Source of the DNA: Squalus acanthias
Taxonomy: Eukaryota
Assembly (NCBI GenBank): GCA_030390025.1
Contig: CM059432.1
Coordinates: 48,052,001 to 48,116,000 of the forward strand
Length of the DNA: 64,000 bases
Direction of reading: 5' to 3'
Part shown: positions 10,336 through 56,769 of the stretch, piece after piece
Numbering within the stretch: the stretch's first letter is position 1
Layout of the letters: every line of letters begins with the position of its first letter
Program-made: the position numbers and the translations under genes
Notes under the pieces: model-generated
Databases searched by the model: none
Told to the model about the DNA's origin: nothing
Seen by the model: only the letters and a program-made list of their open reading frames with translations

Positions 10336-11103
10336 ATTCATAAATAACAATGCATTACACTCCTATTTGAGGATGCTATGCCATGTTATCAAGGAAGTGT
10401 TTTAAAATGGTTTTCGAATAGAGTGAGCCATAAAAATGAGTTATTGGATGAGCTATATCAAAGAACTAAATAGAACTATTGTATTACTAGGTTGCAAATA
10501 CATCAAATGTTTTATTAATATTCTACAGAATTGCTGCTGCATCCACTAATAGGCTAATAATAAAATCAAATTACTGTTATATCAGAAATAAAAATAGAAA
10601 ATGTTGGACATTTGTTGGTCAGAATCTGAAAGAATAAAAATAGGCTAATGATTTGAATAGGACCTTACTTCAAAACTGCACCTATTACATTGCAGATTTT
10701 CTAAATAATAGGGAGAATTTTGCTCTTGAGTCATGATGGTTTTCCGGCATAACTTAGGCAAGCAGGGGCAGAATATTGGGCAAGGTCCTCCTGACCCATG
10801 CGGTTTCTGCCCATTTCTGCCTGTAGTGATCTTCTACCTAAAATTGAGCAGGTGTAACCACATAAGGCAGTAATAGCAGCAGTATGTCAAACATTACATT
10901 TTCCATTATTGTGCAATGAGAAAGGGTTAATTAATAACCTTGTAGTAAAGGGGCCTTTAGGGAAGAGTGACCATAATATGATAGAATTTTATATTGAGTT
11001 TGAAAGTGATTTAGTTAAATCTGAAACTAGGGTCTTAAATCTAAACAAAGCAAATGACGTAGGTATGAGGGGTGAGTTGGCTAAGGTAGATTGGGAAACT
11101 ACA

Positions 11104-12039
11104 GCTCGGACCTGTGTCATGCTCCTCCTGTAACATGTGGGAAATCAGGGACGCTTCCTGTGTCCCTGACAACCATGTGTGCGGGAAGTGTGTCCAGCTG
11201 CAGCTCATGTGGGACCGCATGACGGCCCTTGAGCTGCGGATGGACTCACTTTGGAGCATCCACGATTCTGAGAGGGTTGTGGATAGCACATTTAGTGAGT
11301 TGGTCACACCGCAGGTTAAGGCCAGCGTAGATAGTACATGGGTGACCAAAAGGCAGAGCAAGGGCAGGAAGGTAGTGCAGAAATCCCCTGGGGTTGTCTC
11401 CCTTAGCAACAGGTTCACCGCCTTAGGTGCTGTTGTCGGGGGGGATGACTCATCGGGGGAAGGCACCAGCAGCCAGGCTCATGGCACCATGACTGGCTCT
11501 GTTGCAAAGAAGGGAGGGAAAAAGAGTGGCAGGGCTATAGTAATAGGGGATTTGATTGTAAGGGGAATAGATAGGGGTTTCTGTGGTCGCGACCGAGACT
11601 CCAGGATGGTATGTTGCCTCCCTGGTGCAAAGGTCAAGGATGTCTCGGCGCGGGTGCAGAACATTCTGGAGGGGGAGGGGGAACAGCCAGTTGTCGTGAT
11701 ACATGTTGGTACCAACGACGTAGCTAAAAAAGGGAAGAGGTCCTACAAGTAGAATTTAGGGAGTTAGGAGCCAAGCTAAAAAGTAGGACCTCGAAGGTAG
11801 TAATCTCTGGATTACTACCAGTGCCACGTGCTAGTAAGAGTACAGAGAACAGGATAGTTAGGCTAAATACGTGGCTTGAGCAGTGGTGTAAGAGGGAGGG
11901 TTTTAAATTTTTGAGGCATTGGAACCAGTTTTGTGGTAGGTGTGACCTATACAAAAGGGACGGTCTACACCTGTGCAAAGATGGAACTGATGTTCTCGGG
12001 GTAATTTTTGATAAAGCAGTTCGGGAGCATTTAAACTAG
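11104..12039 (+). pseudogene. CR1 ORF1p: CxxC..CxxC zinc finger, coiled coil, SGNH esterase-like domain; frameshift near 11730
   Basis: CSSC...CGKC, IGDLIVRG, VIHVGTND, DGLHL (ORFs 11114-11752 and 11821-12039). Confidence 0.9.
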
Positions 12040-14969
12040 TATGGCAGGGGGCTAGAAACCTATGTAGTGAAATAGAGGAAAGTGAAAGGCAGACAGAAAT
12101 AAATGGTAAAAGGGTGAGGAACAAAAAACAAAGGGCCAAACTAATTCATAAAAAATGTGAGCATAAAAAAAGCCTGAGGGTTTTATACCTTAATGCGAGA
12201 AGCATCAGGAACAAGGTAGATGAATTAGCTGTGGAAATAGAGGTTAATAATTATGATCTAATTGGGATTACGGAAACATGGTTGCAGGGTGAGCAGGGCT
12301 GGGAGCTTAACATACAGGGGTATTCAGTATTTAGGAAGGATCGACAAAAAAGAAAGGGAGGAGGGGTAGCATTGCTGGTAAAAGAGGGGATAAATGCAAT
12401 TGAAAGGAAGGATATTAACTCAGTTAATACAGAATCTATATGGGTGGAGCTAAGAAATAGCGAGGGGCGAAAAACATTAATAGGAGTGGTATATAGGCCT
12501 CCAAATAGTAAAATAGAGGTTGGGGAGGGCATCACAAGGGAAATTAGAGAAGCGTGCAATAAGAGCACAGCTGTCATCATAGGTGACTTTAACTTACATA
12601 TAGATTGGGCTAGCCTAATCAGTAAAAATAATGAGGAGGAGGAATTCCTTGAGTGTTTAAGGGATGGTTATCTGGATCAATATGTCGAGGAACCAACTCG
12701 GGAACAGGCTATATTGGACTGGGTACTGTGCAATGAGAAGGGACTAATTAGTAATCTTGTTGTACGGGGACCCTTGGGTCAGAGCGATCATAACATGATC
12801 GATTTCTCACTCGAAATGGAGAGCGAAGAAATTGACTCAGACTAAGGTCCTGAATTTAAACAAGGGGAATTATGATGCCATTAGACGGGAACTGAGTAGG
12901 TCTGATTGGACAACGTTCCTGGGAGGACTGGAGGTAGATAAACAATGGCAAGCATTTAAAGATAGAATGACAAAATTGCAAAAATTGTTTATACCAATCT
13001 GGCATAAAAGGAAATCTAAAAAGGTGACTCAACCGTGGATAACAGGGGAAATTAGAGACAGCATAAAATCCAAAGATAGGGCGTATAAAATAGCCAAAAA
13101 AAGCGCCAGAGCGGAAGATTGGGAACAGTTTAAGATAGAGCAAAGGAGGACAAAGGGCTTAATCAAGAGGGGCAAAATAGCTTACGAAAGCAAGCTGGCG
13201 GAAAATATAAAAACTAACTCCAAAAGTATATCAAGAGGAAAAGACTGGTGAAAACCAAAGTTGGTCCATTGCAGTCAGATACGGGGGAATATATAACGGG
13301 AAATAAGGAAATGGCAGACCAACTAAATGCATACTTTGGGTCAGTCTTTACGAAGGAAGACACAAAAAACCTCCCTGGGATATCGGGAAAAATAGGGACA
13401 TTGGCAAAAGAGGAACTGACGCAAATCAATATCTCTAAGGATATGGTGTTAAGGAAGCTAAAGGGATTGAAGGCGGACAAATCCCCAGGGCCTGATAACA
13501 TGCATCCTAGGGTACTGAAGGAGGTGGCCCTAGAGATAGCGGATGCACTAAGTATGATTTTTCAGAATTCATTAGACTCGGGAACAGTGCCCATGGATTG
13601 GAGGGTAGCTAACGTTACCCCACTATTCAAAAAGGGGGGTAGGGAAAAAGCAGGTAATTACAGACCTGTAAGCCTTACATCAGTTGTGGGCAAAATGCTG
13701 GAGTCCATCATTAAGGATGAAATAGCGGAGCACTTAGCAAATGGGGACAGGATAGGACAGAGTCAACATGGATTTACAAAGGGTAAATCGTGCTTGACTA
13801 ATCTATTGGAATTTTTTGAGGGAGTAACTGGTAAAATAGATGGGGGAGAGCCAGTAGATGTGGTGTACCTGGACTTCCAAAAGGCCTTCGATAAGGTCCC
13901 ACATAAAAGATTAGCGTGGAAAATTGAAGCTCATGGGATAAAGGGGAAAGTATTGACGTGGATAGAGAACTGGCTGTCAGATAGAAAACAGAGAGTTGGA
14001 ATAAACGGCTCATTTTCTGAATGGCAGGCAGTAACAAGTGGGGTACCACAGGGATCTGTCCTGGGTCCCCAGCTGTTCACAATTTACATTAATGACCTGG
14101 ATCAGGGAGTCGGATGCAGCATTTCCAAATTTGCAGACGACACTAAACTAGGAGTGGGGGTGGGCTCAGAGGAAGAGACCAGGAAGCTCCAGAGCGATTT
14201 GGACAGACTGGGTGATTGGGCGGATAAATGGCAGATGCACTATAATGTGGACAAGTGCGAAGTTATCCACCTTGGGTGCAGGAACGGGAGGGCAAATTAT
14301 TATTTAAATGGCAATAAATTGGGAGAGGGGGAAGTACAGAGAGACCTGGGTGTTCCTGTACACCAGTCACTGAAGGCGAGCATGCAGGTGCAACAGGCGG
14401 TCAAGAAGGCAAACGGTATGCTGGCCTTCATAGCAAAAGGGTTGGAATACAGGAACAGGGATACCTTGCTGCAGCTGTACAGGGCACTGGTGAGACCACA
14501 CCTCGAGTACTGTGTACAGTTTTGGTCGCCTCATCTGAGGAAAGATGTTCTTGCCATGGAGGGGGTGCAGCGGCGATTCACCAGGCTGATACCAGGAATG
14601 GCGGGATTGACCTATGAGGAGAGACTATGTAGTTTAGGGATGTACACACTGGAGTTTAGAAGATTGAGAGGGGACCTCATAGAAGTGTATAAAATTCTGA
14701 CAGGTCTAGACAGACTAGATGCAGAAGGAATGTTTCCCTTGGCGGGTGAGAACAGAACTAGAGGACATAATTTAAGGATAAGGGCTAAACCATTTAGGAC
14801 AGAAATGAGGGGGAATTTCTTCACTCAGAGGGTGGTGAACCTGTGGAACTCATTGCCACAGAGGGCAGTGTACGCCAGCTCATTAAATATATTTAAGAGG
14901 GAATTAGATATATTTCTACAGGCAAAAGGGGTTAAGGGTTACGGAGAGAAGGCGGGGACGGGATACTGA
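12030..14969 (+). pseudogene. CR1 ORF2p: APE endonuclease + reverse transcriptase; frameshifts near 12840 and 13225
   Basis: [51 protein letters not shown] (ORFs 12114-12845, 12832-13251, 13248-14969). Confidence 0.95.
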
Positions 14970-17454
14970 ATTGGAGGATCAGCCATGATCTCATTAAATG
15001 GCGGAGCAGGCTCGAAGGGCCGGATGGCCTACTCCTGCTCCTATCTTCTATGTATCTATGTATCTATTAAAAGGTATGATGGTAGACAAGCAATGGCTAG
15101 CATTTAAAGAATTAATACATAATTTACAACAAATATACATTCCTTTAAGGCACAAAACCCCACAGTGGATGTGGTGAATTTGGATTTTCAGAAGGCATTC
15201 AATAAGGTGCCACACATGAGGTTATTAAACAAAATTAGGGCTCATGGGATTTGGGGTAATATACTAGCATGGATTGAGGATTGCTTAACGGACAGAAAAC
15301 AGAGAGTAGGAATAAACGGGTGATTTTCGGGTTGGCAGGCTGTAATTAGTGGAGTACCACAACGATCAGTGCTTGGGCCTCAGCTATTCACAATCTACAT
15401 CAATGATTTGGGTGAGGGGACCTAATGTAATATATCCAAGTTTGCTGATGATACAAAGCTGGGTGGGAATGTAAGTTGAGGAGGATGCAAGGAGGCTTCA
15501 AGGGGATTTAGACAGGCTAAGTGAGTGGGCAAGAACATGGCAAATGGAATATAATGTGGAGAAATGTGAAGTTATCCACTTTGGTAGGAAAAATAAAAAA
15601 GCAGAGTATTTTTTAAAATGGTGAGAGATTGGGAAATGTTGGTGTTCAGAGGGACCTGGGTGCCCTTGTACACGAATCACTGAAAGTTAACATTGCAGTT
15701 ACAGCAAGCAATAAGGAAAGCAAATGGTATGTTGGCCTTTATTACAAGAGGATGAGAGTATAAGAATAAAGACGTCTTACTGCAATTATATAGGGCCCTG
15801 GTGAAACCACACCTGGAGTATTGTGTATAGTTTTGGTCTCCTTACCTAAGGAAGGATATACTTGCCATAGAGGAAGTGCAACAAAGGTTCACCAGGCTGG
15901 TTCCTGGGATGGGGGGATTGTCCTATGAGGACAGATTGAGTAGACTAGGCCTATATTCTCTAGAATTTAGAAGAATGAGAGGTGATCTCATTGAAACATA
16001 CAAAATTCTTACAGGGCTTGACAGGGTAGATGCAGGGAGTCTAGAACCAGGGGTCACAGTCTCAGAATTAGGGGTCGGCCATTTAGGACTGAGATGAGTA
16101 GAAATTTCTTCACTCAGAGGGTGGTGAATCTTTGGAAATCTTTACCCCAGAGGGCTGTGGAGGCTCAGTTGTTGAGTCTATTCAAGACAGAGATCGATAG
16201 ATTTTTGAATATTAAGGGAATCAAGGGTTTTGGGGCTAATGCAGGAAAGTGGAGATGATGTAGAAGATCAGCCATGATCTTATTGAATGGCGGAGCAGGC
16301 TCGAAGGGCCAAATGGCCTACTCCAGCTCCTATTTCTTATGTTTCTTATGTTCTTATGTAAAAGTGCCATAGCAACGCTGGACGTAATAAATGTCTATAT
16401 ATAGCAGTTATCCAGCAATTCTAGGGCGAGCAGAAAAACAATCACCCCAGGAAGTACAATCAATTTCAGAGAGATCAATTTGCACTTCACTACCTGTACT
16501 TCATGTGGAATTTTGCAGATGCTCAGTGTTTCTCCCAGCCTGGAGGCAGATGGCCCCTTTAAGCTGCTGCAAATGCCAAAGTACTGCAGCAACAGGAATT
16601 TTCCATCACAACCCTTGGGCGGTGAGCTCCCGAGCACAGGCAGAATACCTACTGGGCCCCACCCAAAATAAGTTAAGTTAAGCAGTGTTTCTGAATAGCA
16701 GGGAGGGTGGACCATCAGGGCTCAGACAATGCGGATTGGTTGCAAGCCACAATCGCCAGGGTACGGCGCATAGGGAAATTCAGTCGGGTCAGAGTCTATG
16801 TGTCGAGTGGGTGTAAGTCACGCTCCACCATACTGGTGGCAGATTAATTCGTAAAGGGAAAAATCTCAGCCAATATGTTTAATTAACTGAAGGCCATTAT
16901 TTGATTTGAAGTCTGAAAATTAACACTATTATTTCAGCGACTGAGTTATAACATTGAATGGCCACAGTAATTGATGATTGTTACCTTTGGAATTCACACC
17001 TTAGTCAGTTAAGAATTCTTTACCTGGCAGACAGCAAGTAATTTCCTTTCATAATTAGAACATATTAAATATAAGCTTGTCTCCTCTTGTTTGAGGTGAA
17101 TGAGGCAAAGCTAATTTTTTTATTTGGCAAAGACACAGGTTTGTTTCTTGTAATGTTTTCTTGTATTAAAGTCAATGTAAAGGAAAATTGGGCAGGATTG
17201 TCAATTTGATACTGCCAGTTTTACACCTCTGCCAAAATTGAAAATTATCCCCAGTATGTCACTCAAAAAGGACAAAACTACATTTGGATCTTAATTTCAT
17301 GCTATAATTAAATATATCTGGATCCCTTGGAGTTGTAACATTTTTTTTTTTAATGTTCACAGGGGAAGACATGAACAACATCCTCTCCTCAAAAATGAGT
17401 GCCAAGGCAAAATTCAGGAATTTGATATAAATGAGATGGACAAGCTTGAACGGT

Positions 17455-18442
17455 CTTTTTTATATTCATTTATGGGATCAGGGCGTCGCTGGCAATGCCA
17501 GCATTTATTGTCCATCCCTAGTTCCCCTTGAGAAGGTGGCGGTGAGCCACCTTCTTGAACCGCTGCAGTCCGTGTGGTGAAGGTACTCCCACAGTGCTGT
17601 TAGGGAGGGAGTTCCAGGATTTTGACTCAGCGACGATGAAGGATCGGCGATATACTTCTAAGTCAGGATGGTGTGTGACTTGGAGGGGAACTTGGAGGTG
17701 GTGGTGTTCCCATGCGCTTGCTGCCCTTGTCCTTCTAGGTGGAAGAGGTCGTGGGTTTGGGAGGTGCTGCCGAAGAAGCCTTGACGAGTTGCTGCAGTGC
17801 ATCTTGTAGATGGTACACACTGCAGCCACGGTATGCCAGTGGTGGAGGGAGTGAATGTTTAAGGTGGTGGATGAGGTGCCAATCAAGCAGGCTGCTTTGT
17901 CCTGGATGGTGTCAAGCTTCTTGAGTGTTGTTGGAGCTGCACTCATCCAGGCAAGTGGAGAGTATTCCATCACACTCCTTACTTGTGCCTTGTAGATGGT
18001 GGAAAGGCTTTGGGGAGTCAGGAGGTGTGACACTCGCTGCAGAATACCTAGCCTCTGACCTGCTCTTGTTGCCACAGTATTTATGTGGCTGGTCCAGTTA
18101 AGTTTCTGGTTAATGGTGACCCCCAGGATGTTGATAGTGGGGGATTCGGCAATGGTAATGCCATTGAATGTCAAGGGGAGGTGGTTAGACACTCGCTTGT
18201 TGGAGATAGTCATTGCCTGGCACTTCTGTGGCACGAATGTTACCTGCCACTTTATCAGCCCAAGCCTGAACGTTGTCCAGGTCTTGTTGCATGCGGGCAT
18301 GGACTGCTTCATTATCTGTGGAGTTGTGAATGGCGCTGAACACTGTGCAGTCATCAACGAACAACCCCATTTCTGACCTTATGTTGGAGGGAAGTTCATT
18401 GATGAAGCAGCTGAAGATGGTTGGGCCTAGGACACTGCCCTG
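17455..18442 (-). mobile_element. CR1-group LINE family A, 5'-truncated
   Basis: ORF 17518-18357 with SVMEYSPLAW; shared 3' tail. Confidence 0.9.
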
Positions 18443-24852: not shown

Positions 24853-27800
24853 ACTGTTACTAAAACATCAGAAATTGGGTCACTCCCCAGCACTGAGCAA
24901 CCAGGTTAAATAATGAAATAACTACCAATGTTGTTTTGGTGGCAGTCTTAAAGTGCAGAGCTGGTGTCAGATACAAACAATGAATATATGCATGGAACAA
25001 CATTTTGGTCCTGAATTTCCTGACTGTCTTCAGTACTTACACTGTTATTATGCTATTATTGCGCTAAAAAGATCAAGGAAACTCGTGTTTAGCACGTTAC
25101 ACTGCTTATGCACTGCTTATGGGGAGAGAGTGGGAATATGGTATTGAGATAGAGGATCAGCCATGATGATATTGAATGGCGGAGCAGGCTCGAAGGGCCG
25201 AATGGCCTACTCCCGTTTCTATTTTTCTATGTTTCCTCGATCTTTTTGGCACCACGAGGCACGTTTGCATTAGGAGCACTACTCACTGGGTGGCACTGTG
25301 CAAGGATATTTCCTGATATTACACAACTGCATTCTGGGAAAGTTAAATGCAAATAAAATGGGGGTGGGAGGGTTGGGGGGGGGGGGTGGGTGGGGGGTGA
25401 AATAGAAATGTGTTAGTGATAAGGGACTCTATAATTAGGGGGATAGATAGCGTCCTCTGCAGCCAAGAAAGAGAATCCCGAAAGGAGTGTTACCTATCCG
25501 GAGCCAGGGTAAGGGTTATCTCACGGCAGCTGGAGAGGGATGGGGTAAATCCAGTTGTTGTGGTCCATGTTGGAACAAACGACATAGGTAGGAGCAGGGA
25601 GGAGGTCCTGCTGAAAGTGAATCAGGAGTTAGGCTCTAAATTAAAAAGCAGGACCTTGAGGGTAATAATCTCTGGATTATCGCCCGAGCCACGTGCAAAT
25701 TGGCATAGAGTCAGACAGATCAGGAGAATTAACACGTGGCTAAAGGGCTGGTGTGGGAAAGAAGGGTTCCTTTTCATGGGACACTGGCACCAGTTGGGAT
25801 GGAATCCACCTGAACGGGACCCGTGTCCTAGCGGAAATGGTAAATAGGGAGGTGGCAAAGGCTTTAAACTAGTAAGATGGGGGGAGGGATCTACAAGAAA
25901 CAAAACCAGCCTAAATATAAACAAAACAGGAAAAGAGAGCATCGGAAAGAATAAAATAAGGGAGGACATTGATGGCAAGGGAGTAAATAGAGTTATAGAA
26001 CAGGAGTCTAAAAAGATGGTTAAACATAAAGTGAGAGGAAATCCTATTAAAAATGAGTTAAACTGTCTGTACAGCAATGCACAGAGTGTCCGTAATAAAA
26101 CAGGGGAGCTGAAGGCAATCATGCATTGTGAGGAACCAGACATATAGGGATTACTGAGACATGGCTACAGAAAAATCAGGACTGGAATTAAACATTGCAG
26201 GGTATAACATGTTTAGAAAAGATAGAGAGGGAAAAAGGGGAGGTGGAATAGCTGTACTTATTAGGGATAACATAAGTAGAAAAAAGTGATGCAGCTATCA
26301 GCAAGTCAAAAATAGAATCCATATGGATAGAGATAAAAGATAATAAAGGATCAATCACACTAATAGGTGTAGTCTACAGACCACCTAATAGTGGAAGGGA
26401 TGTGGGGGAAGAAATATGCAGACAAATTAGGGAAATTAATAAAAAAAATAGAATAATCATCATGGGGGATTTCAACTACCCCAATATTAATTGGACGGAA
26501 GAGGTAGGTAAAGGGGATAAGGGAATAGAGTCCCTACAATGTGTACAGGATTCCTTTCTATCCCAATATGTAAAAAGCCCAACAAGGGAGGATTCGCTAT
26601 TAGATCTAGTTAGGGGGAATGAACCAGAGCAGATAAGAGAAGTAAAAGTAGTGAAACATCTAGGCAATAGTGACCATAATATAATACGCTTTAAGTTGAT
26701 AATTGAGAAGACTTAAGTATGACAAAACCAAGGTAATAGATTGGAGAAAAGCTGATTTTGAGGGGCTGAGAATAGAACTTGGGAAAAAAATGGCAACAAT
26801 ATTGGCAAACAACGATGTAGAATAGCAATGGGAAACATTTAAAACGGTGTTCAACAGAGTGCAGCAAAATATTCTGCTAAAAGGAAAGAACAAACTAAAA
26901 AATAATGAGACTCCATGGATGAATAAAGCCATAAGGGAACAATTGAGGGTAAGGAAAGAGGCATACATTAAGGACATAGACAGCAAGGGAGTGCATGATA
27001 AGGGAGAATACAAAGAGATTAGGAGAGAAGACAAAAAAAATCAGAAGACAAAGAGGAACTATGAAATTAAATTATCAAGGAGCGTAAAACAAAATAGTAA
27101 AATATTTCACAGGCACATTAATAAAAAAAGGAAGGTTAGGATGGGAATAGGGCCATTAAGGGATAGACAGGATAATAACACAGGTAACAATAGAGAGATG
27201 GCAGAAATATTAAGTAATTATTTTGCTTCAGTATTTACCAGGGAGAAAGAACAGGTGGACATGACATTGGATGATGAGATTAGTATTGAGATAAGTGCAT
27301 TTAAAATGAGAGGATATATTAAATAAACTAATCAAACTCAGAGGATAAAACCCCTCATCCAGATGGATTGTATCCACGCATTTTAAAAGAATCTAGGGAA
27401 AAGATAGTAGAGGCATTACTACACATTTAATTATTTGTTAGAAAAAGGTGTAGTGCCAGAAGACTGGCGGATAGCTAACGTAATACCTATATTTAAGAAG
27501 GGGGATAGAACATGTTCAGGGAATTATAGACCAGTCAGCTTAACATCAGTGGTAGGAAAAATAATGGAAACTCTACTAAAGGAGAAAATAGAAGAACATC
27601 TAGAAACCAAAAATATAGTAATGAATAGTCAACATGGATTTCAAAAGGGAAAGTCTTGCTTGACCAACCTCATTGAATTTTTTGAAGAGGTAACAGAAAG
27701 TAGACAATGGTAATGCAGTAGATGTAATTTATCTAGATTTTCAAAAGGCCTTCGATAAGGTACCCTATAATAGACTAATGAACAAGGTCAAAGAATGCGG

Positions 27801-28395
27801 AGTCAGGTGATAAGTAGCAGAATGGATAGCTAGCTGGCTTCAAGACAGAAAGCAGAGAGTAGGAGTAAAGGGTAGCTATTCACAGTGGCAGAAGGTGGGT
27901 AGTGGTGTTCCACAAGGATCAGTGCTGGGACCACTGCTGTTCACAATTTATATTAACAATTTAGACTTTGGAATCAAAAACACAATTTCTAAATTTGCGG
28001 ATGACACAAAATTGCGGGGGGGGGGTGGAATATAGTCAATACTGAGGAGGACTGCAACAAATTACAGGAGGACATTAATAAACTTGCAGAATGGGCATAT
28101 AATTGGCAAATGAAGTTCAACACAGATAAATGTGAGGTATTACATTTTGGTAGGAAGAATAGGGAGGTCACTTATTACTTGGAGGGTGCGAGTCTAGGTG
28201 GGGTAGAGGAACAAAGGGATCTCGGAGTACAAATACACAAATCATAAAAAGTTGCGACACAGGTTAGCAAGGCCATAAAAAAAGTAAACCAAGCACTAGG
28301 GTTTATTTCTAGAGGTATAGAATTGAAAAGTAGGGAAGTTATGCTAAACCTGTATCGAACCTTGGTTAGACCACACTTAAAGTATTGCGTACAGT

Positions 28396-31125
28396 TGAAG
28401 GGATAATTACTAGTCCTAGCCCCTTTAGGGCTACCCCGGATCAGGCGTATTCCTCAGACGTTCACTTTCAACTAAAGTTTGATGTAGCCTGTAGAATTCG
28501 CAAAATTATCGCGATTTTATAATAATAAGGAGACATAAAGTTTCATATAAACAGCTTTATTTCAGCAAAATGCTGTCATGTTTCAAAAAGGACACAAGCA
28601 GCCTGTAAAATGGCCACCACGCCTCGTGGCAGAAGGTTCTAGACTTTCAGTAGGCAGACAAGATGGCGTTTCAATAAACATTTCAGCAAGATCGGACAGG
28701 ACTCAGCACATTTGAGATAATGACAAGACGCGATGGGTTTGCATTTTAAACATAAATACTGGAATCGGGTTTTCCATGCACAAACGAGGGCTATTGTACT
28801 GGGCGATCAAGGACCCATCCAAAGACATTGATATGTAAAATCCCCACGGCTCTACGATGAGAGAGCCGTTCGCGGGTACTCACAGCAAGCATTTGGGAGC
28901 CCCCAAAAACCCCTCCAGGGAGACTACTAGCCGGTTCCACAATGGGAGAAATATTAACGGGTACTCAGACAGTTACAAGTGTCACCGAAACCCATTAACG
29001 ACAAGTACCACCCCATACAAGAAGTTTGAGCGCCAAAACATGACAAAAGATGAACATTTAGATTGGGCGGGAGATAAGGAATTACAGTACTATAACTGTA
29101 GTGTCCAAACGTCCATCTTTCTCTTTTTCTTTACCACCGACTGGAGCTCTGGACTCTCATTCTCTGATCCGCTGATTTTCCGGGAGTCAACCTCGTGGCT
29201 TGCCGTGGAGATCTGTGGAGAGCTGGACTGCAAAGGCCGATAAGCGGGCGCACCATCCCGAGAAGTCGGTAAACGGTGTCGGATCCGAAGGCCCGGGAGG
29301 AGATGAGATGAGATGAGATGAGAAGAGAAGAAGAAGACTACACGTGTCGCCGTGGTCAGTAAGCCCCGACCGCGCCTCAAAATATAAGGACCATTTTCGA
29401 ATTCTACAGGAACTGGCCCGAGAAGACTATTCTTCGAGTTCTACCGACAACTGGTGTCGGGCACAGTAAGACTCTTCTTCGAACTGTATCTGGAGTCAAC
29501 ACAGATCTTCATGACAGCAGACGATCCAGCCTGCTAGCCGGAGCAGAAGCGAGTAAACAAGTGGGGTACAGAGACCCCTGATCAACACGTGAATAGTCAG
29601 GTGCTGTGGCGAAAACATCCGAGCAGCGTTTTAGAATTCTCCGAATTGTCCCGATTGGTGAGCATGAGTCTTGATCCTACAGATCTATTTTAGGACAGGC
29701 ATTGATAGGGGAGGTTTTGGTTTTAAGGATAATTATAATGTGTGTCCCCTTTTACGATGTGTCGTGCGCTCCTCGTTTCCCTAAAATTAGTTTCATAACT
29801 GTGTGCAAGATTGTACTGTCATTAATCTGTGCTTATGACATGTATTTCGTAATCTTGAATAATATGCAATAAAGATTTTCCATTTCGCACTATTCAACCG
29901 GGTCTACCTGAGTTTTCTCTGCATTATTGCTCTCGCACCTAAGTCCAGTGTCAGAACCGTAAGGGCGAGTGGGTCGAACCACTCACAGGTGTCTAGTGTT
30001 ACCAGGCTGGCTGGAGACCAGAACAGGCAACAAGGCCTAACCCCGCACTAGCACCCAGGCTAAGCACAGAGCCACGCGAAACCCCCTTACAAGCCGAATC
30101 CTAAAGATGCTTAATTGGGTCTAAAGGTCCAGACTATCTCTCCCTAAAGGAAAGGAACAACCTGAAAATGTTACCATCCTCCAGATAGCACTTTTAATAA
30201 GTTTAGCTAGACTGTAACGTTCCAGATATTATGAGGGTCTGGAAAACTCCCCCAGAATTCTGCAACTCCTCACCAAAGAGTGTACAGAAATTGAGTTCGC
30301 GAGTTTGATACAGAAGTCTTGAGACAATTCTAAAAATATATAGATTTATTAAAGAACCAACATGTAGTTTACAGTTGGTGAGTCAATCACAACATTAACA
30401 GTTCCAAAAAGAGAAAGCTTACAATTCTATTATCAGAGATCCTTACTCTCAAATCTAAACTTCGTTACAGTTTTACAGTTCTTAGTTTTCTACTCAGGAT
30501 ATCCACCAAAATCAAATACCTTTGATCGCCGAGGTACAAAGAGTTGGAGACTTACAGAGCTGCCTCTGAAGCCGAGAATCACGTTGCCCCTTTAAAGCGA
30601 GGCTACTATCCCATTTGAGAGTTCAATATTTATACCCTTTTCCAGTGGTATTTCCTTTAAGGTTTTCTGCTGATGTAAGCTAATTATCTCTAGTAATTTT
30701 TCTGCTGACCCCTGCAATTCTTAGTCACCTCAGCTGGTAGCATTACAGAATTATGTCTCTTCTCTAAGTGTTCTAAGTTTACCATAAAAAACGGTGTAAC
30801 GGCAGGTGCGTTTTACTTGATGTCATTTTTACGAAGGCAAATGTTTGTGCTTCTTTACGAAGTGTAAATTAGAACACCTTGTACAGGGTGAACCATTGTT
30901 TGATTCTGAAAGATTCAGACTACCGGAGCCTTTAACCTTCTGTTTCAATAAGGTTATTGATTCAGTGTCAACAACTATCTTATCTCTATAGCCAGAATAC
31001 TTTCACAGCTTTTTCATAGTTAGGTTTCTAGATTTCCAGACCCAGTTTGTCATGTTTTAATAAGGCCAGAATTCTTTCATAGAATGGTGTATTTTTCTGA
31101 ATAGGTTATATGGCTTATTCCTTCA
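28396..31125 (-). mobile_element. Outer solo-LTR-like insertion (28396-28489 + 30096-31125)
   Basis: TGAAGG...CCTTCA termini interrupt the CR1 coding sequence; degenerate flanks TACAGT/CACATT; minus-strand AATAAA (about 30345) and TATAAA (about 30630). Confidence 0.65.
28490..30091 (+). mobile_element. Solo LTR, about 1.6 kb, nested in the outer LTR
   Basis: TGTAGA...TTACA; perfect 4-bp TSD AGCC (28486-28489 / 30092-30095); AATAAA at 29868; CpG-rich. Confidence 0.8.
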
Positions 31126-31670: not shown

Positions 31671-33338
31671 AAGTGCCGAGTGGATGATCCATCTCCGCCT
31701 CCTCCTGAGGTCCCCACCACCAGGAAGGCAGTCTCAGCCAATTCGATTCACTCCACGTGATATCAAGAAACAGCTGCATGCATTGGATACAGCAAAGGCT
31801 GTGGGCCCCAACAACATCCTGGTTGTCGTGCTGAAGACTTGTGCTCCAGAATTAGCTGCACCACTAGCCAAGCTGTTCCAGTACAGCTACAACACTGGCA
31901 TCTACCCGACAATGTGGAAAACAGCCCAGGTAAGTCGTGGCCACAAAAAAGCAGGATGAATCCAATCCGGCCAATTACCGCCCAACAGTCTACTCTCAAT
32001 CATCAGCAAAGTGATGGAAGGTGTCGTCGACTGTGCTATCAAGCATCACTTACTCATCAAAACCTGCTCACCGATCTCAGTTTGGTTTCTGCCAGTACCA
32101 CTCAGCTCCAGACCTCATTACAGCCTTGGTCCAAACATGGATAAAAGAGCTAAATTCCAGAGGTGAGGTGAGAGTGACTGCCCTTGACATCAAGGCAGCA
32201 TTTGACAGAGTGTGGTATCAAGGAGCCCTAGTAAAATTGAAGTCAATGGGAATCAAGGGGAAAACTCTCCACTGGCTGAAGTCATACCTAGCACAAAGGA
32301 AGATGGTTGTGGTTGTTGGAGGCCAATCATCTCAGCCTGAGGATATCGCTGCAGGAGTTCCTCAGGGCAGTGTCCTAGGCCCAACCATCTTCAGCAGCTT
32401 CATCAATGACCTTCCCTCCACCATAAGGTCAGAAGTGGGGATGTTCGCTGATGATTGCATAGTGGTCAGTTTCATTCGAAACTCCTCAGATAATGAAGCA
32501 GTCCATGCCCGCATGCAGCAAAACCTGGACAACATTGAGGCTTGGACTGGTAAGTGGCAAGTAACATTCATGCCACACAAATGCCAGACAATGACCATCT
32601 CCAACAAGAGAGAGTCTAACCATAGCCCTTTGACATTCAACGGCATTACCATCGTGAATTCCCCCACCATCAATATCCTGGGGGTCACCATTGACCAGAA
32701 ACTTAACTGGACCAGCCACATAAATACTGTGGCAACAAGAGCAGGTCAGAAGCTGGACGAGTGTCTCACCTTCTGACTCCCCAAAGTCTATCCACCATCT
32801 ACAAGGCACAAGTCAGGAGTGTGATGGAATACTCTCCATTTGCCTGGATGTGTGCAGCTCCAACAACGCTCAAGAAGCTCGACACCATCCAGGACAAAGC
32901 AGCCCACTTGATTGACGCCCCATCCACCACCTCAAACATTCACTCCCTCCACCACCGGTGTTCCATGGCTGCTGTGTGTAACATCTACAAGATGCACTGC
33001 AATAACTCGCCAAAGGCTTCTTCGGCAGCACCTCCCAAACCTGCTACCTCTACCACCTAGAAGGACAAGGGCAGCAGGCGCATGGGAACACCACCACCTC
33101 CAAGTTTCCTTCATAGTTACACACCAACCTGACTTGGAAATATATCGCCGATCCTTCATCATCGCTGGGTCAAAATCCTGGAATCCCCTTCCTAACAGCA
33201 CTATGCGAGTACCTTCACCACAAGGACTGCAGCGGTTCAAGATGACAGCTCACCAACACCTTCTCAAGGGAAATAAGGGATGGGCAATAAATGCTGGCCT
33301 TGCCAGCAACATCCACATGCCAGGAACTAATAAAAAAA
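31671..33338 (+). mobile_element. CR1-group LINE family A, longest copy
   Basis: [22 protein letters not shown] (ORF 32021-32776); shared 3' tail + A-run. Confidence 0.9.
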
Positions 33339-39115: not shown

Positions 39116-39203
39116 ATTATGTATTCTTCTACAGAATTGAAATACATATTTATTTCAGTTGTGTTATTTAACTTGACCTTACAGTCTGCAAGAAGTAATT
39201 AAT

Positions 39204-39738
39204 TTTTTTTTTATTCGTTTATGGGATCTGGGCATCGCTGGCAAGGCCAGCATTTATTGCCCATCCCTAACTGCCCTTGAGAAGGTGGTGGTGAGCCACC
39301 TTCTTGAACCGCTGCAGTCCATGTGGTGAAGGTACTCCCACAGTGCTGTTAGGGAGGGAGTTCCAGGATTTTGATCCAGCAACGATGAAGGAGCGGCGAT
39401 ATGCTTCTAAGTCAGGATGGTGTGTGACTTGGAGGGAAACTTGCAGGTGGTGGTGTTCCCATGCGCCTGCTGACCTTGTCCTTCTAGGTGGAAGAGGTCG
39501 CGGGTTTGGGAGGTGCTGCCGAAGAAGTCTTGGCGAGTTGCTGCAGTGCATCTTGTAGATGGTACACACTGCAGCCACGGTACGCCGGTGGCGGAGGGAG
39601 TGAATGTTTAAGGTGGTGGATGGGGTGCCAATCAAGTGAGCTGCTTTGTCATGGATGGTGTCGAGCTTCTTGAGTGTTGTTGGAGCTGCACTCATCCAGG
39701 CAAGTGGAGTGTATTCCATCACACTCCTTACTTGTGCC
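39204..39738 (-). mobile_element. CR1-group LINE family A 3' fragment
   Basis: ORF 39267-39722; shared tail. Confidence 0.9.
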
Positions 39739-39746
39739 TAATAGAT

Positions 39747-40630
39747 GGCACAACTCCATTTGCAACTCCTTAGATAATGAAGCAGTACATGTCTGAATGC
39801 AGCAAGACCTGGACAACATTCAGGCTTAGGCTGATAAGTGGCAAGTAACATTCGCGCCACACATTGCCAGACAATGACGATCTCCAACAAGCAAGAGTCT
39901 AACCACCGCCCCTTGACATTCAATGGCATTACCATTGTTGAAACTCCCTCCATCAACATCTTGGGGATCACCATTGACCAGAACCTTAACTGAACCAGCC
40001 ACATAAATACTGTGGCTACAAGGGCAAGTCAGAACATGGGTATTCTGTGGAGAATGACTTACCTCCGAAGTCCCCAAAGCCATTCCTCCATCTACAAGGC
40101 ACAAGTTTGGAGTGTGATGGAATACTCTCCACTTGCCTGGATGAGTGCAGCTTCAACAACACTCAAGAAGCTCGATACCATCCAGGACAAAGCAGCCCAC
40201 TTGATTGGCACCCCATCCACCACCTTAAACATTCACTCCTTCCACCACCGGCGCACCATGGCTGCAGTGTGTACCATGTACAAGATGCACTGCAGCAACT
40301 CACCAAGCTTCTTCAGCAGCACCTCCCAAACCTGTGACCTCTACCACCTAGAAGGACAAATGCAACAGGCACATAGGAACACCACCACCTCCAAGTTCCC
40401 CTCCAAGTCACACACCATCCTGAAATATATTGCCGTTCCTTCATCGTCGCTGGGTCAAAATCCTGGAACTCCCTACCTAACAGCACTGTGGGAGTACCTT
40501 CACCACACAGACTGCAGCAGTTCAAGGAGGCGGCTCACCACCACCTTCTCAAGGGAAATTAGCGATGGGCAATAAATACTGGCCTTGCCAGTGACACCCA
40601 CATCCCATGAATTAATTTTAATTTTTTTTT
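39747..40630 (+). mobile_element. CR1-group LINE family A 3' fragment, 5'-to-5' with the previous copy
   Basis: ORF 40012-40575 with SVMEYSPLAW; shared tail. Confidence 0.9.
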
Positions 40631-53475: not shown

Positions 53476-53780
53476 AGCAACTTCCGGCGACTGCACATGC
53501 GCAGTTAAGCGCAGAAATCAGGAAGTTGCTGTCCAAGTTGCCCTGCTCCTCCGAAGCTTCACTATATCTGACCGAGAGACTCAGCATTGAAACATATGGA
53601 ATGCGTGAAGTTGCTGTACTTACGTGATAGATAACCACTAAACATGCCAGAAAAAGTTACAGTTCTTCCATTTTAGTGTAAGTAAATTTTTAACAGCGTG
53701 ATAAGTTTTAATTACTGCCAAACAATCTCTCTGGCACTGGAAATTAACTTTTACAAGTGTGGAGTCTCATTCCTTCAGAT

Positions 53781-55233
53781 TTTCCAGTACAGCTACAACA
53801 CTGGCATCTATCCGACAATGTGGAAAATTGCCCAGGTATGTCCTTCCACAAAAATCAGGACACATCCAATCCAGCCAATTACCACCCCATCAGTCCACTC
53901 TCAATCATCAGCAAAGTGATGGAAGGTGGCATCGACAGTGCTATCAAGCAGCACTTACTCACCAATAACCTGCTCACGGATGCCCAGTTTGGGTTCCACC
54001 AAGACCACTCGGCTCCCGATCTCATTACAGCCTTGGTCCAAACATAGACAAAGGAGCTGAATTCCAGAGATATGGTAAGAGTGACTGCCTTTGACATCAA
54101 GGCAGCATTTGACCAAGTGTGGCATCAAGGAGCCCTGGTAAAATTGAAGTCAATGGGGATCAGGGGGAAAATGCTTCACTGGCTAGAGTCATACCTAACA
54201 CAAAGGAAGATGGTTGTGGTTATTGGAGGCCAATCATCTCAGTCCCAGAACATTACTGCAGGAGTTCCTCAGGGCAGTGTTCTAGACTCAACCATGTTCA
54301 GCTGCTTCATAAGGTCAGAAGTGGAGATGTTCGCTGATGATTGCACAATGTTCAGTTCCATTCACAACTCCTCAGATAATGAAACAGTCCATGCCCACAT
54401 GCAACAAAACCTGGACAACATCCAGGCTTGGGCTGATAAGTGGCAAGTAATATTAGCACCATGCAAGTGCGAGGCAATGACCATCTTCAACAAGAGAGAG
54501 TCTAACCACTTCCCCTTGACATGCAATCGCAATACCTTCGTTGAATCCCCCACCATCAACTTCCTGGTGGGGGGGTCACCATTGACCAGAAACTTAACTG
54601 GACTAGTCACATAAATACTATGGCTACAAGAGCAGGTCAGAGGCTGGGTATTCTGGGGCAAGTAACTCACCTCCTGATTCCCTGAAGCCTTTCCACCATC
54701 TATAAGGCACAAGTCAGGAGTGTGATGAAATACTCTCCACTTGCCTGGATGGTTGCAGCTCCAACAACACTCAAGAAGCTTGACACCATCCAGGACAAAG
54801 CAGCCCGCTTGATTGGCACCTCATCTATCACCTTAAAATATTCACTCCTCCCACCACTGGCGCACTGTGGCTCCAGTGTGTACCATCTACAAGATGCACT
54901 GCAGCAACTTGCCAAGGCTTCTTCGGCAGCACCTCCCAATCCCATGACCTCAACCACCTAGAAGGACAAGGGCAGCAGGTGCACGGGAACATCACCACGA
55001 ACAAGTTCCCTTCTAAGTCACACATCATCTTGACTTGGAAATATATCGCTGTTCCTTCATCATCGCTGGGTCAAAAACCTGGAACTCCCTCCCTAACAGT
55101 ACCATCACCACATAGACTGCAGCGGTTCAAGAAGGTGGTTCACCACCATCTTCTAAAGGGCAAATAGGGATGGGCATTAAATGCTGGCATTACCAGCGGC
55201 ACCCACATCCCGTGAATGAATAATTTTAAAAAA
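53781..55233 (+). mobile_element. CR1-group LINE family A
   Basis: DIKAAFD, PQGSVL, FADD; shared tail. Confidence 0.9.
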
Positions 55234-56769
55234 TGTTAATTATTGTTGGTGATTTTTTATAAATTAACTACTGTTCCCTTCTGTCTCTTTTATCTCCCTC
55301 TCTTAATCCCATATTCCTTTTCCTCTCTTTATTTCACTTTCTGTGCATGATTTGGTATTGAATTAAATGTTCTAACTGTCACTTCCTGGTTTTGGCCTTG
55401 CTGCCCATTAAGAATTCTTCAATCTGATTGGTTAAGGAGATACACAGTTGCTTGCCCTGTTCACACAGGTCCCAGATCCCCTGTAGAGGGCGCCGCGCTG
55501 AAATGGATTTCTAATTCCTGCAAGTTCCAGTGCAAAAGCCCATAGAAACTCTGTGGGCAAGTGTAAGTGTAATGAATGGCTGGTGCCGTTCGTTCGCGGC
55601 TGACCACAAAATCCGGGCCATTAACTCTTCTTAGTTGCTTTTTATTTGGCAGAGTGTCACAAAAAGCTGGTGGAGGCCTGTGAGTAAAATGGCTGCTGGA
55701 ATTCTGTGTGACACAACTGAGAGAAAATAATTTTCAAATGAAGTAATAGTTAAATAAATATGGCTTTTTTTTTATTTATCCTTCCTTATATTTAATCCAG
55801 CTTGTGGAACTTGTTTGTTGTTGTGTCTTGTTGTTTGTCATTATTGGGCTCCACAAACGCTCCAGTGCATACTTCTCATTAGCTGGTATAAAAATAACTT
55901 GGAACTGCTCTTGTGGTTTTTTTTCAATACTATGGAGAAATGTCACAGAGTTGCACTGAGTTTATTTAATCTTTAGTCTGCACCTGTATATGTGGCTGCC
56001 AGCTGGATTTCCACTGTGCTCTACAGGTCCAAAGCAAATTACATTCTACTGTACCTTTTAGCAAGTTACATTTTGAAACCTACATATACCTTCAGGGAGC
56101 TTCCCAATTATGACACGATAAACAGTTCTTTCTCTTCCTATTGTAATACTCAGCACGTCTATGACCTTTTCTAAAAGGACTGATCCAGAAAAGCAACAAA
56201 AAAGGACAAGTTTTTTGGGTCACATGGCCTTTTACTGTTCCTAAAATGTCTTAAAACTTAACATATAAAGCAATCCTTCCATGCAATACATTAAATAAAG
56301 TTTTGTTATAGTAGTTATTGTTTAAAAATATATTTTTCTAATAGCTCACGAAAAGCGAATAAGCGCTTATATTTATGCATGAAAATCTTGTGTACATGCC
56401 AGCACAGGTGTGCTACAGCTGTACTTAGCTGCCCCATTACTGCTTCATCTTGTTGCTTCTATCATCAGCTTATTATCATATCTGCAAATGTACCTAGCTC
56501 AGGGTCAGCCCTGGGCGCCATAGAACTGGAAAATACACCCATCTCATTCAAGTTTATTTTATTACTGATATTATTATTACACGGAATTACATAGAAAAAC
56601 TTGTACACTGAACTGCTAATTATGACGAGAATATCAAAAACTTTTAAGTCATCATATCCGAAGGTGCAAATTAAAATGGAAAATTGGTAGGCTTCATATA
56701 GCTGCAAACAAAGTTAAATCCAATGCAGCCTACGAAACTAAAAAAGAACTTCAGTTCTATTTCTTGCTG

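Follow-up and report, generated by a model that had tools for sequence, protein, structure and literature searches.

The locus under study is a decayed CR1 LINE, here called copy B (about 25401-28397), that is truncated at both ends and lies in a 64-kb window, the whole stretch of DNA that was analyzed (Table 1). It has two CR1 traits, an ORF1 for an SGNH esterase and an ORF2 for an APE endonuclease and reverse transcriptase (RT). The broken ORF1 matches PF13472 with an E-value of 3e-7 (31.6 bits, below the curated cut-off of 32.9) and is 66% identical to P0001, and the homologs of ORF1 carry the name SGNH esterase. ORF2 contains many stops and frameshifts and its 3' end is absent; it matches ORF2 of a second CR1 element in the window, copy A, by tblastn, and among the named matches to ORF2 the best come from skates, rays, and sharks. 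The 3' tail of another CR1 copy lies just 5' of copy B (25150-25235) and is 87% to 90% identical to tails at 14974-15056 and 16261-16345.

Table 1 Coordinates of the CR1 elements, their junctions and other repeats in the window
Feature	Position	Strand	Remarks
Copy A, heptamer and TAG	12030-12039	+	Same heptamer as in copy B; ORF1 ends ...REHLN-stop
Copy A, ORF2 in the -1 frame	12030-12845	+	Linker and entire endonuclease domain
Copy A, G-run	12047-12051	+	11 nt past the heptamer
Copy B, ORF1 (3' part)	25401-25872	+	SGNH/GDSL esterase, 5'-truncated; ends ...AKALN-stop
Copy B, putative slippery heptamer T TTA AAC (U_UUA_AAC)	25863-25869	+	TTA AAC are the final two codons of ORF1
Copy B, ORF2 linker in the -1 frame	25863-26057	+	Stop-free, 65 codons, Lys/Asn-rich
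Copy B, ORF1 stop TAG and second in-frame stop TAA	25870-25875	+	
Copy B, G-rich motif	25879-25888	+	Candidate 3' stimulator; starts 10 nt past the heptamer
Copy B, in-frame ATG	26016-26018	+	A at -3 and G at +4; two other ATGs lie between it and the ORF1 stop
Copy B, decayed ORF2	26058-28397	+	APE endonuclease from LNCLYSNAQS, then RT
RT-bearing repeat copies	60-1995, 17456-18442, 31876-33338, 39179-40621, 53728-55242		

The ORF1-ORF2 junction

The end of ORF1 in copy B reads GCT TTA AAC TAG (25861-25872), followed by TAA. This is the junction that the initial annotation had described, together with a -1 frame that stays open for about 65 codons into the endonuclease and an ORF1 disrupted upstream, and all three features are present. 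Read from the heptamer, the -1 frame begins FKLV and reaches LNCLYSN 65 codons later, at 26058. Over the 69 codons to the Y-x-N motif of the endonuclease it has no stops, compared with nine and nine in the other frames, and a stretch of this kind is open in 0.2% of 5000 shuffles.

Relative to copy B, the contigs of run X13 (loose ends of 25 and 34 contigs) carry about 26 nt extra near 25795 and 6 nt extra near 25815, which indicates that copy B has lost these bases and that the ORF1 break is specific to it. By frame arithmetic, the 26-base difference brings the upstream ORF1 frame into phase with the heptamer. The published consensus SquAca_CR1-22, matched to family B by eye over the 400 letters available, has sequence at both deletion places. 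None of the 12 common linker variants listed from run X13 creates a stop in the -1 frame, and none of the 40 listed out of 81 variants alters the heptamer or the ATG. Runs X21, X9, and X3, with no more than 2, 7, and 14 records, were left aside as too small. Copy B itself is dead, and the frameshift claim discussed below concerns its parent family.

The decamer TTTAAACTAG occurs at two places in the window, 12030 and 25863, compared with a mean of 0.26 in shuffled sequences, of which 1 in 100 reached two copies. At both sites an SGNH-esterase ORF1 ends and ORF2 opens one base back. As a plain 7-mer, TTTAAAC is frequent, with 18 occurrences in the window when both strands are counted, so it is position and phase that count, not the word alone.

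The first of these sites belongs to copy A, whose ORF1 matches PF13472 with an E-value of 3e-4 (below the curated cut-off) and whose ORF2 contains the domains PF03372, PF14529, and PF00078. The first in-frame Met of this ORF2 is at 12795, past the SDH motif, and the 3' end of the element carries a short repeat near 15040-15067. Copy A (about 11096-15067) was apparently inserted in an older CR1 copy (10888-11100 and 15064-16364), the ORF2 of which resumes beyond the copy A tail. Another RT-bearing repeat is present in the window in copies that are 82% to 94% identical, some of them as inverted pairs (Table 1).

The two copies represent divergent families, with ORF1 sequences that are 51% identical and four-fold sites identical at 11 of 27 positions. 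As had been claimed, their linkers differ in length and sequence: they measure 207 nt in family B and 156 nt in family A and have no local alignment beyond chance words of 8 to 11 nt. A G-run follows the junction in both, again in agreement with the initial annotation, which had taken the second junction as independent support for a selected signal. The case for a signal that is under selection at the nucleotide level and keeps a fixed phase to both ORFs holds up, and independence does not; since families A and B share an ancestor, the second junction is a case of retention across saturated synonymous sites and not of independent origin.

Conservation of the junction codons

To collect further junctions, metagenomes were scanned with a DNA pattern obtained by back-translation of the esterase core, which lies about 155 codons 5' of the junction, so that the junction itself was not used. 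At least 22 loci were found, one of them false (L019); 13 of the 21 true loci, including L022 of the SKN type described below, end before the junction, and 8 span it. The heptamer is intact and in ORF1 phase in six of these eight, as T TTA AAC in L001, L013, L015, and L020 and as G TTA AAC in L002 and L011. The other two are decayed copies with damaged heptamers, T TTA CGA in L003 and T TTA ATC in L012. Between the heptamer and the endonuclease, the -1 frame has no stop in five of the eight loci and in both window copies. The stop after the heptamer varies (TAG, TAA, or TGA), and in L002 there is none, so that ORF1 extends for 11 more residues after Leu-Asn, with ORF2 again in the -1 frame. 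Related-locus searches found no relative in viral contigs or metagenomes. DNA pattern searches gave nothing in viral contigs and one false match in GTDB (L023), and a mis-spaced DNA pattern had no match in the loci.

The initial annotation had raised the possibility that a protein-level constraint on Leu-Asn-stop, with variable codons, explains the conservation. We compared codon use in seven lineages with 21% to 55% pairwise identity, namely, the two window copies, L001, L015, L011, L020, and L002, leaving out the damaged L003 and L012 and also L013, a near relative of L020. Leu-Asn is encoded by TTA AAC in all seven, preceded by T or G, whereas a single codon is kept at none of the nine other ORF1 columns in which the amino acid is invariant in the same lineages. 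Background use is 13 of 94 Leu codons for TTA and 22 of 38 Asn codons for AAC. The original claim thus stands; a Leu-Asn-stop constraint is insufficient because the codons are invariant only here, the stop varies, and L002 lacks it. These comparisons support a selected signal, apparently acting at the nucleotide level and in fixed phase with both ORFs.

C-terminal ends of ORF1 homologs

A protein search over 1.84 billion representatives returned 379 ORF1 homologs, 150 of which were listed. Among 156 homologs, counted over the matches listed, the C-terminal dipeptide is LN in 42, GN in 8 (all QGN), and KN in 4. In the 68 homologs with a DGxH-like motif 22 to 30 residues from the end, the counts are LN 39, GN 8, and KN 2; a heptamer-compatible dipeptide, of which 16 are possible, ends 49 of these 68 compared with a background of 6.5%, the 68 being relatives and not independent observations, and 19 have other ends. 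In the zero frame, U_UUA_AAC, G_GGA_AAC, and A_AAA_AAC read LN, GN, and KN, respectively, and the GN and KN ends fit other slippery heptamers at the protein level. Since the proteins are related and their DNA was not seen, these counts lend supporting evidence only.

Homologs ending in LN are named from sawshark, electric ray, eel, turtle, tortoise, snake, lizards, and swallow, and one more clusters with a crocodile protein. FKL is found upstream of the endonuclease in crane gene models and in one ENA protein. In a phylogenetic tree of the homologs, an FF-x pair is sister to a QGN pair with support of 100/98. Only this sister pair is used from the tree, because its automatic labels include errors (P0001 and P0072 have no true LN ends, and the FF class includes FL). 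Five of the metagenome loci (L002, L011, L013, L020, and L022) and the QGN and SKN proteins branch apart from the named vertebrate esterase ORF1 elements, and one relative (P0082) is from a sea cucumber. The available text of PMC4120745 reports this ORF1 type only from vertebrate subgroups.

Among the long proteins listed, a search for natural in-frame ORF1-ORF2 fusions gave two matches, neither with an endonuclease or RT. One protein (P0258) does join an esterase to an endonuclease, but it lacks the junction, looks like a deletion copy, and was rejected as a natural fusion.

The junction in published CR1 consensuses

In line with the survey of other vertebrates that had been proposed, the motif was sought in published consensuses; it is present at an ORF1-like end in CR1 consensuses of 12 species in the supplement of PMC13343379, of which the first 400 letters per consensus were viewed. 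The species extend from elephant shark and coelacanth to bullfrog, crocodilians, and bearded dragon; since the entries were found by the motif itself, this result gives a range and not a frequency. The junction and linker of family B are near-identical to those of SquAca_CR1-22, its match by eye in these partial consensuses. Three shark consensuses in the same view (ScyCan_CR1-1a, SquAca_CR1-17a, and SquAca_CR1-6c) have a TAATG whose ATG is in frame with ORF2.

Sequence downstream of the heptamer

Folding was by minimum energy and duplex prediction only. No conserved stable fold was found 3' of the heptamer by these methods; the window copies have z-scores of -0.45 to +0.63, and z falls below -2 within 100 nt in only 2 of 10 sequences. 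Nor did duplex folding give a shared long-range partner of the G-run. The stem-loop or pseudoknot of a canonical frameshift element was not found by this folding. What the junctions do share is a G-rich motif: in 8 of 10 sequences (about six lineages) GGGG starts between +8 and +11, compared with a background of 3.8%; it is absent in L002 and L012. This motif is a candidate stimulator and may act in the RNA, or it may merely encode Gly. For synthetic constructs, stimulation by G-quadruplexes is on record, and in pea enation mosaic virus the presence of a nearby stop is of importance (both in the portion of PMC5009743 available).

Proposed frameshifting and alternative explanations

Two features of canonical -1 sites are present, a heptamer of the form X_XXY_YYZ in zero-frame phase and a downstream ORF open in the -1 frame. 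From this anatomy and its conservation, we infer that the conserved signal is a ribosomal frameshift, and we regard it as likely that -1 programmed ribosomal frameshifting yields an ORF1p-ORF2p fusion. Most ribosomes would finish ORF1p at the stop, and in a minority the reading frame would move back by one base, as tRNA-Leu and tRNA-Asn pair anew with UUU AAA, and reading would continue as Leu-Val. The predicted product is an ORF1p-linker-endonuclease-RT fusion made in a low fixed ratio, as for retroviral Gag-Pol. Candidate stimulators are the G-rich motif 8 to 11 nt downstream, which might serve as a protein-binding site or form a G-quadruplex, and the adjacent stop. In family B, the AUG at 26016 may offer a second route, to free ORF2p, and both routes could coexist. 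Readthrough of the stop was considered and ruled out, as ORF2 does not share the frame of ORF1 and the stops of copy B come in tandem.

The main alternative is that ORF2 is translated by termination-reinitiation, as in SART1 and L1, with the motif and G-run holding or positioning the post-termination 40S subunit and translation resuming from an AUG close by (that at 26016 in family B, TAATG elsewhere) or, in family A, from a non-AUG codon. Reinitiation is the route of both SART1 and LINE-1, and in SART1 it involves a downstream element (PMC5972666, consulted in part); the TAATG stop-start of the three shark consensuses, at least in the portions seen, is as in SART1. The ATG at 26016 has a strong context and is also present in the partial consensus SquAca_CR1-22; the caveat that the initial annotation attached to it is thus real, since the ATG belongs to the family and is not specific to the copy. 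An in-frame Met precedes the endonuclease in five of seven elements with intact linkers (copy B, L002, L011, L013, and L020), but there is none before the endonuclease motif in copy A and L001. No SART1-type AUG lies at the ORF1 stop in copies A and B, where the stop-adjacent ATGs are out of frame, and across elements the ATGs near the stop occupy all three frames. In copy B, two out-of-frame ATGs precede the one at 26016, and the 51 codons 5' of it are stop-free, which occurs in 1.7% of shuffles. Reinitiation also leaves unexplained the X_XXY_YYZ form of the heptamer and its retention 12 codons before the stop in L002, and we consider it unlikely.

Less probable still, and in our judgment very unlikely, is that the motif acts as a DNA or RNA element with no part in decoding, such as a factor-binding site, an internal promoter, or a splice or processing signal, that lies at the end of ORF1 by chance. 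The G-run is conserved at the nucleotide level, and the 9-mer TTTAAACTA followed by a G-rich tail is also found 5' of ORF1 in two dogfish consensuses as far as these were seen (SquAca_CR1-3 and SquAca_CR1-18), where it adjoins apparent splice-site motifs. At the junction, however, the phase to both ORFs is fixed in all intact loci, linkers of different lengths keep the -1 frame, and the exchanges to GN and KN suit tRNA re-pairing rather than a fixed binding word. A splice acceptor in particular is ruled out because the TAA and TGA variants remove the AG that it needs.

That the esterase merely requires a C-terminal Leu-Asn, with the DNA match as a by-product, is scarcely credible: the LN share among the listed homologs and the fixed distance of the vertebrate end from the DGxH motif (26 residues) fit such a constraint, but it appears largely refuted by the invariance of codons at Leu-Asn only, the extension of L002 beyond it, the GN, KN, or FF-x ends of other clades, and a residue before LN whose codon can end in T in 40 of 42 homologs (background 0.84; p=0.023, uncorrected for kinship).

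If -1 frameshifting is indeed conserved, the functional enzyme would be a Gag-Pol-like fusion carrying the esterase, so that a membrane-binding esterase would be tethered to the RT. Frameshifting would also account for CR1 ORF2 sequences without a consistent start codon and change how CR1 ORF2 is annotated, in what the available part of PMC13343379 describes as the dominant retrotransposon of most vertebrates. It is conceivable, though we hold this general form of the idea only tentatively, that esterase-type CR1 LINEs of jawed vertebrates and, apparently, of invertebrate relatives make a fusion RT by pseudoknot-free -1 frameshifting stimulated by the G-rich motif. The junction would then be an apparently structure-free frameshift cassette with a natural class of stimulator, one that for G-quadruplexes was anticipated but not known according to the part of PMC5009743 (2016) at hand.

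Comparison with known systems

The elements most similar to those described here are the vertebrate esterase-type CR1 elements (subgroup 7 with ORF1 type IVB in PMC4120745; canonical CR1 in PMC13343379), which, in the text available, have the same esterase ORF1 and an ORF2 with APE and RT. The CR1 literature that was accessible describes two separate ORFs, and the main texts of PMC13343379, PMC3905857, PMC8665684, and PMC4120745 do not use the word "frameshift". No frameshift proposal for CR1 was found in the literature accessible to us; subscription papers and Repbase notes could hold a prior mention. The routes to ORF2p of LINEs that are named in the review literature, in the parts seen, are reinitiation (SART1 and LINE-1) and StopGo. 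Among APE-type non-LTR elements, a -1 frameshift is stated to be required for ORF2 of Dictyostelium TRE5-A and TRE3-A (PMC5911963). These belong to another clade and have another ORF1, and the figure legend that carries the statement names neither a heptamer nor a test. The bicistronic RNA of SART1 and LINE-1, as described in the sources available, is like that of CR1, some shark consensuses of which share the TAATG; unlike those elements, CR1 lineages have no AUG at a conserved place or frame, and copy A has none in the ORF2 frame before the endonuclease ends.

The junction is a real and conserved feature and probably a recoding signal. It has mechanistic parallels in viruses, as far as can be told from the portions of PMC3542737 and PMC5009743 available. 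The -1 sites of coronaviruses, arteriviruses, and retroviruses use the same heptamers (U_UUA_AAC and G_UUA_AAC) in the same phase as CR1, GUU is tolerated as XXX in equine arteritis virus (PMC3542737), and PMC5009743 counts U_UUA_AAC, G_GGA_AAC, and A_AAA_AAC with the most shifty heptamers. As in those viruses, CR1 would fuse a structural-type ORF to a polymerase ORF. Canonical -1 frameshifting, however, needs a structure 5 to 9 nt downstream (PMC3542737), whereas no pseudoknot or stem-loop was found at this distance in CR1, where the stop usually abuts the heptamer. The junction is therefore not classed as a canonical -1 site, although it would work like viral frameshifting. Another system for comparison is the nsp1beta/PCBP system of PRRSV, in which, according to the available text of PMC5009743, the place of the RNA structure is taken by a short unstructured motif that lies 11 nt 3' of the shift site. 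The PRRSV motif is C-rich and protein-bound, whereas that of CR1 is G-rich and has no known binding protein, but at +8 to +11 the CR1 G-run resembles it in position.
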